Shown here piece by piece: positions 20,658 to 33,440 of a stretch of DNA of 64,000 bases. Source of the stretch: Candidatus Omnitrophota bacterium (GTDB taxonomy: Bacteria > Omnitrophota > Gorgyraeia > Zapsychrales > Fredricksoniimonadaceae); assembly GCA_030650275.1 (NCBI GenBank), contig JAUSEK010000023.1:199729-263728 (forward strand). Direction: 5' to 3'. Each line of letters starts with the position of its first letter. Positions within the stretch are counted from its first letter, which is position 1. The notes under the pieces were generated by a model that worked only from the letters and a program-made list of their open reading frames with translations, searched no databases and had not been told where the DNA came from. Made by a program: the position numbers and the translations under genes.

Positions 20658-23600
20658 ATGTTTAAAAAATTCCTAAACCTTGTCCTGATTCTTACCTTTG
20701 TGGCCTCTTCGTTGGCGCCTGCCCGTTCTTATGCCGCACCCCTATCTTTACCTGAGCCGGGAACAATGGTCAATCTAAGCCCTGCCTTTGAGTCGGTCTT
20801 GATCAAAGGCCTTAAAGTCCATCCCGAGAATCCTTTTGCCTTTGATTTCATTGTAGATACCGGCCACACGGGATTGTCCGTAGAGACGAGGCATGCCTCG
20901 TCTCTACACAACGAATCCATGAAATTGATCAAATATTTCCTTACTGCCTTAACCATCCCCGAAAAAGACCTCTGGGTCAACCTGTCTCCCTATGAGAAGG
21001 ACAGGATGATCGCAGAGAACTTAGGCAAAACCCAAATGGGCCAGGACATGCTGGCCCAGGACTATATCCTCAAACAACTGACCGCATCTCTGATCTATCC
21101 TGAACGTGACTTAGGCAAGGCCTTCTGGGACAAGGTCTACCAAAAAGCCCAACAACTCTACGGCACTACTGAAATACCCGTCAACACCTTTAACAAGGTC
21201 TGGATCGTTGCAGACAAGGCCGATATCTTTGAACGCGGCAATGTGGCCTACATTGTAGGAGCACATCTTAAGGTGATGCTGGAGGAGGACTACACGGCTT
21301 TAAACAAGAACCAACAGGGATTGTCACCCCCGAAATCTTCTATCGGGGGTCCAGAGCATGGGACATCTTCTGGATTCCCGACAAAAACATTCGGGAATGA
21401 CAGCCATGCGATGGCCTCCCAGATCGTCCGTGAGGTCATCCTTCCCTCCATCGAACAAGAAGTCAACCAGGGCAAGAACTTTGCCCCTCTTCGCCAGATG
21501 TTCTACTCCATGATCCTGGCTTCCTGGTACAAGATGGCCCTTAAAGACACCATCCTAACCCAACTCTACGGTAACCAATCAAAGACCAAGGTCGGCATCA
21601 ACGCCAACAACCCCAATGACAAGGACAAGATTTTCGAACAATACCTGAAGGCCTACAAGAAGGGTGTGTTCAACTATATTAAGGAAGATGCTTCGGCTGC
21701 GCTCAGCACAGGTGCTTCGACTCCATCGTCCCGACAATCGTCGGGACTCGGTCGCTCAGCACAGGTGCCCAGGAAGTATTTTTCGGGGGGGCTGCAGATG
21801 GGCGTTGACCAAGCCATGCGGGTCGTGCACGACCTGCCTTTGGGGACATCATTACGTACAGGAAACACCTTTGATGTCGCGATCTTGGCCAATACTAAAT
21901 TGGCTGGTTCCGACGGGGCGATGGTGGCCAGGATACCAGTTAATTATACTAATACAAGAACACGTCAAGCAGTAGCTGGTTTGAAACTAACAGAGCTGGG
22001 CGTTGGCTATACACGTTTATCCAACGGAAATCCGACACCAGAGATGATTTTTACCGTGACCACTCCAAGCGGTCGAACAATTGAATTAACCGGAGCATCA
22101 CCGGCAGGAGAGTCTGAAGGAGTAAGAGCAGCCCTCTTTATGCTAGATGGGTCAGCAGCTGAAGACCTTACACTTATCAGAGATGGAGTTCTCAAAGCCG
22201 TTTACGGGGATATCTCTAGAGAAGATGCGGAAAATAGGATGCTAAAAGACATTTTTGGATTAGACAGGCAGCAAGCCCTTGTCCAGATGAAGGCTGACTT
22301 AAAAGGAAAAAATATTAAAGTCGCCCTTTGGATCGCTGAAAAAGTAATCCTTCCAAAGCTTAAAGACGCCATTGAATCAGGGAGGGTTGATCCAGCCATA
22401 AGATATCGCATGGATGACACTCAAAACAAAAGTATTGATGACTTTCTTATTAATCTCGACATTGAACTTTTTGGTCGTGAAGGATACAAGGGGGATCAAT
22501 TTTTAGCCCTTAGTGGAGGCAATGTAACTGCTTTGAGTAGGGTTGGGTACAGATTAGTAGCTACTTTAAACGGTGTTTCCAATGAAGAAGTTTTATCTCA
22601 TGGTTATAACCCAGATACAGGAGAAGTTGATCCTCATCAGGAGTTTGGCATCGTTCATCCCATGCCTGTTTTAATCGAAGGCGCCGCTCATGGAGGCTGG
22701 CTAACTGATTTTCAAGAGTTTATGTATTTAATGATGCTTAATGAACGAGAGAGAGCAATGAAAGGATTAGCTCCGAAGTTTGAAAGTCTTCTTAACAAAA
22801 TACAAGCAGTGACAGTGGCACTAACCGATATATTGAAGAAACAGGGAGAGTCCGTCGGTGTGGGTAGCGAAGCGGCCTTTATGTTAAGAAACGCAAATAG
22901 CAATTTAGATCCGATTCAATATCTTTTAGATGCGGCTCGAAAGAGTGGATTAGTAGTAGGAGAAGATTATGGTTTAAGCTTTGATTGGGCCACCAGTGAA
23001 ATTTATCACACCACTGCAGATGGATGGCCTGTGACCGGGTATTATCTATCACTTGAAGGCCGATTAGGAAAACTGCCTGAGATTATTATTCCTGGAGGAA
23101 CTGCGGAAGGTCAAGTGCGAACTCTGGGCCAATTGATAACAGTTCAGGGTAAAAAATATGCTGTATTATCGACGATAAATATGTTTGATTGGATTAAATA
23201 TTTAATTACAAGAACAAACAACCCTCTTCCCTTGGCTACACTGGAAGATATATTTGCTCAGTTTGATATCCAAGGAACCAGAATGTTGACAGGACTTTTA
23301 TATGAACTGAAAAGAACATCCGGATTTCCGTTTAGTTTTCAAAATAGTAATGGTGTAACGCAGGTCATGGATGACATGTGGACAACCCGTCGAGATATCA
23401 TGAGAGCTGCGATCAAGGGGACCCCTCTAGGAGAACCGTTAGTTATTGGAGAGGGGAGAGATCAAGAAGTATTAAATTTTCCTCAGGATACGTTCGACGG
23501 GGGGTTGGTAAAGCTCAATCAGGTTGGGCCGATAAAGTGGTTTATGCAAGCGGCCGCAGAGTTACGGGCACGAGGCCGTGATGTTGTTGATTCTCATAGG

Positions 23601-33440: not shown

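Follow-up and report, generated by a model that had tools for sequence, protein, structure and literature searches.

A large Omnitrophota protein family in which a conserved head and tail bracket unrelated passenger domains separated by D-x-A-M joints

Introduction

Modular effector carriers such as MARTX are the described systems closest in logic to the protein family considered here, in which a conserved N-terminal module (the head) and a conserved C-terminal tail bracket a variable centre composed of unrelated domains (the passengers). Two members, the open reading frames (ORFs) A (20658-25322, 1554 amino acids (aa)) and B (30840-33440, 866 aa), both open throughout, lie in a 64,000-nucleotide (nt) stretch of a Candidatus Omnitrophota genome (assembly GCA_030650275.1, contig JAUSEK010000023.1, positions 199,729 to 263,728; hereafter the window) and are two intact paralogues of one very large unnamed family. 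In MARTX proteins, conserved ends bracket a mosaic of unrelated effector domains that differs between paralogues or strains, and the passengers are released at short inter-domain sites, for which the D-x-A-M motifs of the present family would be the counterpart. The likeness is one of architecture only: MARTX proteins depend on a type I secretion system, lack a Sec signal, and feature glycine-rich repeats and Peptidase_C80 autoprocessing with cleavage after Leu, whereas the present family has a predicted Sec signal, a 330-aa head, a 60-aa tail, D-x-A-M motifs and lengths of 0.5-2.7 thousand aa. MARTX-type glycine-rich repeats and Peptidase_C80 gave no Pfam or NCBIfam match in A or B and are absent from the families detected in 50 centres, and the two systems are unrelated in sequence, fold, secretion signal and joints.

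Several other systems share single features with the family. CdiA-CT (VENN) and Rhs (PxxxxDPxGL) have a short motif at the border between conserved and variable sequence and occur as many paralogues; in CdiA, Rhs and MafB, however, a toxic variable domain forms the C-terminus and an immunity gene comes next, three features that the present family lacks. Cargo proteins of the type IX secretion system in Bacteroidota likewise start with a Sec signal, continue with arbitrary functional domains and finish in a conserved module of ~60-80 aa outside the enzyme, but they belong to another phylum and possess neither a conserved head nor an inter-domain motif, and no match of the tail to Por_Secre_tail (PF18962) or TIGR04183 was obtained at E<=0.1 with full-length A and B. 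Classical autotransporters (type Va secretion) end in a beta-barrel of ~300 aa, in contrast to a tail of ~60-75 aa that has no Pfam hit. Viral polyproteins and LapA/LapG-type surface proteins also hold several functional units in one chain with short Ala-containing recognition sites in between; in the present family, cleavage at the joints is putative.

Within the phylum itself, two reports (10.1101/2023.11.21.568195; 10.64898/2026.06.07.730766) describe giant proteins ("Archaeovorins") that tile cytoplasm-type domains behind signal peptides or transmembrane (TM) helices, and post-translational cleavage has been proposed for them. PGM_PMM, receiver, methyltransferase, HD, NUDIX and HEAT domains are common to the giants and the present family, while the giants measure 10-147 thousand aa and usually carry many TM helices, compared with a maximum of 2,725 aa among the best 150 matches of the present family. 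The passages of the two reports considered here contain no description of the present head, tail or D-x-A-M motif, and full-text literature searches found none either.

Conserved ends and unrelated centres in A and B

Only the two ends of A and B align. Residues 1-390, comprising the signal peptide and the N-module, show 193 identities in 402 positions (48%; BLASTP, E 7e-112), and the C-terminal tails are 36% identical across 66 aa (E 8e-5), while BLASTP detects no significant similarity between the two centres. A sequence-only reading of this DNA had proposed precisely this layout, with a signal peptide, N-module and GGID tail common to both proteins and unrelated, GC-poor centres; the alignments at both ends cover all the motifs it quoted and bear the proposal out. 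The GC content is 0.45 in the centres and 0.54 in the flanks, and GC at third codon positions (GC3) is 0.38-0.41 in the centres and 0.61 in the N-module of the same gene. The label "giant" was less apt, as 866 and 1554 aa make the proteins large rather than giant. The features of both ORFs are as follows.

20658..20735, plus strand: signal peptide of ORF A, MFKKFLNLVLILTFVASSLAPARSYA, with a K/R n-region, an h-region of ~16 aa and Pro near -6
Within the same ORF: predicted signal peptide cleavage region of A, a small-x-small site preceding the conserved LxLPxPG
20736..21791, plus strand: N-module of ORF A, residues 27-378, ending in PRKYFSGG
21807..21818, plus strand: D-x-A-M joint 1 of A (DQAM)
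21912..21923, plus strand: D-x-A-M joint 2 of A (DGAM), where the enolase segment begins
22020..23618, plus strand: passenger 1 of ORF A, a divergent, elongated enolase-like domain, residues ~455-987
23808..23819, plus strand: D-x-A-M joint 3 of A (DAAM), separating the enolase and dPGM segments
24363..24878, plus strand: passenger 2 of ORF A, a dPGM-type histidine phosphatase, residues 1236-1407, with RHG and HGN
25032..25082, plus strand: D-x-A-M joints 4 and 5 of A (DAAM, DQAM), directly ahead of the tail
25095..25322, plus strand: tail and stop codon of ORF A, GGIDFN...IVPITNLPMLLGL
30840..30923, plus strand: signal peptide of ORF B
30924..31925, plus strand: N-module of ORF B, residues 29-362
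32058..32096, plus strand: D-x-A-M joints 1 and 2 of B (DAAM, DRAM)
32748..32759, plus strand: D-x-A-M joint 3 of B (DSAM), directly ahead of the receiver-like domain
32784..33116, plus strand: passenger of ORF B, a degenerate receiver-like domain, residues 649-759
33216..33227, plus strand: D-x-A-M joint 4 of B (DSAM), ahead of the tail
33249..33440, plus strand: tail and stop codon of ORF B, GGIDLN...IVPATYIPAL

Family size, distribution and conserved ends

Among 1.84 billion cluster representatives searched, the N-module profile matches 8,390, each standing for a cluster formed at 50% identity; 6,806 of these matches reach E<=1e-30. The module lies at residues ~1-400 and in an N-terminal position in every match. 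The best 150 matches are 470-2,725 aa long, and most matches contain a second matched stretch that is taken to be the tail; the GGID tail motif was found in 130 of the pooled matches. A protein search with the N-module, covering matches shorter than ~1.8 times the query, returned at least 1,333 proteins, and at least 592 copies were confirmed in GTDB species genomes. Source names read "hypothetical protein" of Candidatus Omnitrophota/Omnitrophica, except for one NUDIX-domain annotation and one JGI YnzC/DUF896 label, and the named sources are all metagenome-assembled genomes (MAGs) of Omnitrophota/Omnitrophica or a MAG deposited as "uncultured Planctomycetales". The family thus appears to be very large, undescribed, unnamed and so far restricted to Omnitrophota.

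The 79 best loci are spread over 50 assemblies (MAGs), none of which contributes more than 5, and include 51 complete ORFs spanning 331-2,368 aa. Since 46 of these 51 end in the tail, head and tail are obligate partners; at least three of the five exceptions carry on in a shifted frame. The conserved head measures ~330-350 aa and the conserved tail ~60-75 aa with the signature GGID(L/F)N, the initial G-G-I being invariant in a 100-sequence family alignment. Neither module has a Pfam or NCBIfam match at E<=0.1 when full-length A and B are scanned, nor does Foldseek find anything below E 0.1 in PDB or BFVD. The AlphaFold2 (AF2) model of the A head reaches a predicted local distance difference test score (pLDDT) of 75.6 and a predicted template modelling score of 0.73, and the tail is modelled as a short hairpin plus helices. 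The earlier reluctance to assign the N-module to a known family was therefore justified: profile scans and structure prediction link neither head nor tail to an existing family or PDB structure, and no single well-annotated family in Pfam or NCBIfam accounts for the two ends.

Head-to-tail tandem arrangements are common among the loci, with full gene pairs at L028 (2765-9091) and L038 (3719-10293) and an upstream ORF closing in a GGID tail just before the next member at L020, L028, L031, L043 and L072. At L017, L077 and L079, a frameshift interrupts the member, and the part rich in D-x-A-M or bearing the tail follows in the next frame; pseudogenes and assembly errors are both conceivable causes. 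Along with a remnant in the window, described below, the split members suggest a steady turnover of copies.

Centre repertoire across relatives

Conserved ends with swapped centres, first noticed in A and B, turn out to characterize the whole family. In an all-against-all BLAST of the centres of 177 non-identical full-length members, pooled for this comparison, just 80 high-scoring segment pairs (HSPs) were obtained at E<1e-8, so that nearly every member differs in content, and D-x-A-M is the sole consensus in a MAFFT alignment of 50 centres. These 50 centres contain 62 Pfam families, each in one or two members, and a variable centre holds from one to about ten unrelated domains. Enzymes are represented by PGI (4e-199), PEPCK_GTP (5e-84), PGM_PMM I-III, Transketolase_N, His_Phos_1 and Enolase_C, and further by HD, PP2C and Methyltransf_11, with NUDIX and Response_reg added from the N-module protein search. 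DNA-binding domains (HTH_3, HTH_Crp_2) and repeat scaffolds (Ank, HEAT, TPR) are also found. The GC content of the centre lies below that of the flanks in 35 of 46 loci (Wilcoxon p 3e-6), and GC3 is 0.41 in the centres versus 0.51 in the heads, a pattern that fits either homogenisation of the ends or faster evolution under weaker constraint in the centres.

D-x-A-M joints

Every boundary in A and B, whether between head and centre, between domains or before the tail, bears a D-x-A-M motif. The density of this motif in family centres is 3.56 per 1000 aa versus 0.134 expected from composition, a 27-fold enrichment; it is 0.03 per 1000 aa in family heads and 0.20 in 114,791 aa of non-family ORFs from the same loci, and the motif does not occur in 30,314 aa of stand-alone dPGM homologues. 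A logo of 404 sites reads [small]-D-[A>x]-A-M-[TAVS]-[ASVT], beyond which the flanks are uninformative, and the alignment of 50 centres places the motif twice near the start and once ahead of the tail. Third codon positions vary at the joints (GAC/GAT, GCG/GCC/GCA), showing that selection acts at the protein level.

The joints also delimit domains. Successive motifs are separated by a median of 186 aa, about one domain, and none of ~32 sites falls inside a Pfam domain envelope in the eight members with hits (A, B, L008 (HD), L015 (HTH units), L024 (PGM_PMM), L026, L039 (PGI) and L069 (PEPCK)), where domains cover about one third of the centre. Each recognisable domain is flanked by two motifs, with a single HTH unit per segment in L015. 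Of the ends of the rare inter-protein HSPs, 27% lie no more than 10 aa from a motif, compared with 9% at random, and in the AF2 model of B, joints 1 and 2 occupy coil with a pLDDT below 50 between helices.

Three other roles for the motif were considered and rejected. Internal translation initiation at the motif Met is disfavoured by the lack of Shine-Dalgarno-like conservation at residues -4 to -2 and by the variable third positions, and the same variation (GAC/GAT, GCG/GCC/GCA) speaks against a recombination site acting at the DNA level. A signal peptidase I site is a poor match, as Asp at -3 does not conform to the small-x-small rule.

Export signal and head-tail relation

All 119 members in which LxLPxPG could be anchored (119/119) have a K/R n-region, a hydrophobic core of 13-16 aa, Pro near -6 and a small-x-small (A-x-A) site, and both the -1 Ala and the Pro are conserved in at least 90% of the 100-sequence alignment. 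TM-like segments are missing from 144 of 177 centres, including those of A and B. Because the n-, h- and c-regions are conserved and the centres mostly lack TM segments, the sequence features favour export as a soluble protein by way of a cleaved Sec signal.

The full-length AF2 model of B gives the tail a pLDDT of 60-94 while the centre stays at about 30, and head residues 340-359 turn into a beta-hairpin beside the invariant YFSGG, unlike in the head-only model. This combination of a confident tail in a low-confidence centre with a hairpin switch at 340-359 suggests that the GGIDLN hairpin may dock at the YFSGG hairpin of the head.

Passengers of A and B

The second passenger of A is a His_Phos_1 domain (PF00300; residues 1236-1407, E 5e-31 in Pfam) of the dPGM type. 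It scores 92.6 bits with TIGR01258 (cut-off 81.7), whereas all equivalog models remain far below their own cut-offs, and its best PDB match is 1fzt (E 4.5e-26). LVRHGET, with the catalytic RHG, and SAHGNS, with the second His in HGN, are retained. The closest relatives are ordinary stand-alone dPGMs at about 35-41% identity, the search gave no sign of a recent capture from an identifiable donor, and no homologue was found for the 180 aa upstream of the domain. Elsewhere in metagenomes, dPGM is fused to glycolysis-related domains, namely PPDK_N + His_Phos_1 and PGK + His_Phos_1 (P0375, P0401, P0467, P0455), and these fusions carry no D-x-A-M.

Residues ~455-987 of A align collinearly with PDB enolases and retain SNGNPTPE, QEFM, VGSEAAF, FDWATSE, LEDIF, VKLNQVG and SHRGNE. 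Scores stay far from the equivalog level (Enolase_C E 1.6e-5 in Pfam; TIGR01060 E 1.3e-12 in NCBIfam, 47 bits against an equivalog cut-off of 300), and the segment occupies ~630 aa versus ~430 aa in enolase. Equivalents of E168, E211, D246, E295, K345 and H373 appear to be kept, while that of D320 was not found. Judged by its sequence, passenger 1 appears to be a collinear, very divergent enolase, so that A would chain enolase and dPGM, two consecutive glycolytic steps, in one protein. The earlier account of the centres, a dPGM-type domain in A and a receiver-like domain in B, was correct as far as it went and overlooked this enolase-like domain.

The passengers of B are a helical domain and a receiver-like domain without the acceptor Asp. 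The latter (Response_reg, residues 649-759) scores 29.2 bits, just below the Pfam cut-off of 30.2, and matches PDB response regulators at E 7e-5. At the position of the phospho-acceptor Asp, the sequence, aligned by eye, reads DLVVTSS, with Ser/Thr as replacement.

Possible functions and alternative explanations

The explanation that accounts best for these features, although it stops short of being probable, is an exported carrier in which head and tail bracket passengers that are handled or released at the D-x-A-M joints. The whole protein would be exported by Sec; head and tail, possibly docked together, would form the constant carrier that directs the polypeptide to a destination in the envelope, at the surface or in a partner cell. 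Recognition at the joints would most likely be by a protease, with Ala at P1, that frees the passengers. An epibiotic parasitic or predatory lifestyle has been proposed for Omnitrophota (PMC10066038), and many of the passengers need cytoplasmic substrates or cofactors, which would make the cytoplasm of a host or prey cell of these epibiotic nanobacteria the most coherent destination. An extended version, in which the family comprises phylum-wide Sec-exported polyproteins that a dedicated protease cuts at D-x-A-M and whose freed passengers reprogramme the carbon flux and signalling of the host or prey, is judged unlikely; in it, head and tail would be a constant carrier with a novel fold, and its load would be strings of metabolic enzymes and regulators of host type. 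If true, this would be the cellular equivalent of what auxiliary metabolic genes are in phages, and the family might also represent a small-scale version of the giant multi-enzyme proteins of the phylum.

Several observations weigh against the carrier explanation. Active PGI, PEPCK and enolase would have no obvious use after export unless another cell is reached, a step that is purely conjectural. About two thirds of the individually scanned members have no Pfam domain in the centre, which means that the notion of cytoplasmic enzymes is drawn from a minority of centres. The head shows no evident protease fold or catalytic His/Cys, and no protease, secretion-system or chaperone gene is consistently linked to the family, the top neighbour cluster (8 of 79 loci) consisting of generic histidine kinases. 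A mean-field direct-coupling analysis between head and tail (177 sequences) was dominated by gap and edge artefacts, with a failed positive control and similar scores after permutation. D-x-A-M may alternatively serve for docking or as a structural cap, or it may be the scar of a fusion.

An alternative of low probability is that the proteins serve the cell itself, with head and tail acting as an assembly scaffold that holds the organism's own metabolic and regulatory domains at a membrane or periplasmic location, or at a cytoplasmic one should the N-terminal helix remain as an uncleaved anchor, and with no delivery to other cells. The passengers do include well-conserved enzymes of the housekeeping type (PGI, E 4e-199; PEPCK, 5e-84; PGM_PMM), two consecutive glycolytic steps are paired in A, family genes lie among housekeeping genes, and similar tilings in the giants are read as membrane-anchored and cytoplasm-facing in one report (10.64898/2026.06.07.730766). 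A self-serving role, however, is difficult to reconcile with a textbook cleavable signal whose -1 Ala is at least 90% conserved and which places the bulk of the protein outside the cytoplasm, and with the 144 of 177 centres that lack a further TM segment. The periplasm, in turn, lacks the ATP/GTP, thiamine pyrophosphate, S-adenosylmethionine and sugar phosphates that the passenger enzymes need. The passengers are also too diverse and non-orthologous for a core metabolic scaffold, and the B receiver is missing its acceptor Asp.

Somewhat more doubtful is a variable surface coat or adhesin, in which the proteins remain intact at the surface, the centres provide binding or antigenically variable surfaces, and D-x-A-M is the signature of a flexible linker or the scar of a captured-gene fusion with Met as the former start codon. 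Giant Omnitrophota proteins have been discussed as adhesins or coat components (PMC10066038), and M followed by a small residue does look like a natural protein N-terminus; a scar, though, would not hold D at -3, A at -1 and, after M, [TAVS][ASVT] under protein-level selection across 404 sites. Extreme centre diversity, high copy number, decayed and frameshifted copies, and ankyrin, HEAT and TPR passengers would all suit such a coat, as would a centre GC3 below that of the heads, which is consistent with fast, weakly constrained evolution. Set against this, A keeps the dPGM catalytic motifs and apparently most of the enolase ones, the PGI and PEPCK scores resemble those of active enzymes, and neither silent cassette arrays nor recombination repeats were found.

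The likeness to polymorphic toxins or antigen cassettes drawn by the sequence-only reading, in which conserved ends would deliver a toxic centre in contact-dependent competition while immunity genes shield siblings, can claim the conserved ends that enclose a variable region delimited by a short motif (as with VENN in CdiA), the multiple paralogues and the tandem pairs, but is very improbable, because the variable part is internal and the C-terminus conserved, the passengers are enzymes, regulators and scaffolds with no toxin domain among the 62 Pfam families in 50 centres, no immunity-like gene follows A or B, no neighbour family recurs in the 79 loci, a search of the window for orphan centre or tail cassettes found none, and Pfam and NCBIfam scans of A and B gave no domains associated with type V, VI or VII secretion.

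Omnitrophota are widespread, uncultured, ultra-small bacteria presumed to live on other cells, and a family of more than 8,000 clusters with several copies per genome, a head whose fold matches nothing recognisable and a sharply defined linker motif is probably a major part of the Omnitrophota-host interface. Splitting at D-x-A-M is a simple way to divide thousands of multi-domain proteins now labelled "hypothetical" into pieces suited to annotation and structure prediction. Metabolic reconstruction calls for caution as well, given that PGI, PEPCK, phosphoglucomutase, enolase or dPGM detected in KEGG orthology or Pfam scans of these genomes may not be cytoplasmic pathway steps but passengers that follow a signal peptide.

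A decayed third copy

The window contains a third locus at 60467-60968, previously described as retaining only the N- and C-terminal modules. Pieces of both are indeed present, but they amount to just the first ~100 aa and, out of frame, the last ~21 aa.

60467..60787, plus strand: 5' part of the remnant, signal peptide and first ~80 aa of the N-module
60861..60968, plus strand: 3' part of the remnant, last ~21 aa of the tail (APGFVPVIINIQPMTDLREFL) in another reading frame

The remnant head is 43% identical to B over ~100 aa (E 3e-24) before diverging, and its frame ends at a stop codon at 60836-60838; the remnant tail is 76% identical to the tail of P0109 (E 1e-9), and between the two lie ~70 nt of unrelated sequence with a stop codon. 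Given the truncated head, the unrelated filler with its stop codon and the tail in a different frame, the sequence identifies the locus as a frameshifted deletion remnant, a decayed copy rather than a minimal member. The filler holds a perfect 10-bp inverted repeat at 60811-60843 (ACAACTTACG ... CGTAAGTTGT, 13-nt loop), possibly a terminator or a trace of the event behind the deletion.

Divergently oriented beside the remnant, at 59134-60482 on the minus strand, is an AAA_22 ATPase (ExeA/GspA-like, E 1.5e-26), together with a small ORF that weakly matches T2SSB (E 3.5e-4) within the same interval; the pair may have an accessory role in type II secretion. Directly downstream of the remnant, the gene at 61117-61656 (plus strand) encodes a protein with an ORF6N domain (E 2e-33).

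Genomic context

The surroundings of A and B consist of ordinary chromosomal genes, nearby for a metallopeptidase-like protein, ATP-grasp ligase, RNase T, Bro-N, SPOR, LpoB-like, PEPCK_ATP and CusB/AcrB proteins, and further away for the pyruvate dehydrogenase complex, TamB and others. The gene next after A encodes the Bro-N protein, while B is followed by an unannotated 127-aa ORF and then CusB/AcrB. Clustering of 375 neighbouring ORFs from the 79 loci revealed no recurrent partner family, barring generic kinases, TPR and ABC-F proteins.

The Bro-N protein (E 5e-8) is encoded at 25426-26256 (plus strand). Bro-N and ORF6N are domains typical of phages and mobile elements, and their genes lie in low-GC stretches (0.44-0.47); neither neighbour recurs across the 79 related loci. 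Three ORFs have no Pfam match, namely 19-1632 (537 aa), 27405-28661 (418 aa) and 33487-33870 (127 aa), all on the plus strand and all devoid of head, tail or D-x-A-M enrichment. A stand-alone PEPCK_ATP (E 2e-205) is located between A and B at 29060-30700 (plus strand), so that three enzymes around phosphoenolpyruvate and 2-/3-phosphoglycerate (PEPCK_ATP, enolase and dPGM) fall inside 10 kb, which may be coincidence.

Elsewhere in the window, a transfer-messenger RNA (tmRNA) gene at 10301-10708 (minus strand) has an unusually long predicted tag, ANSTLTYNGVMSEFAKSEAPAEAVAV, that ends in AVAV instead of the usual ALAA. The kilobase 11001-12000 near this gene has the lowest GC content of the window (0.42) and may mark an island at the tmRNA gene.

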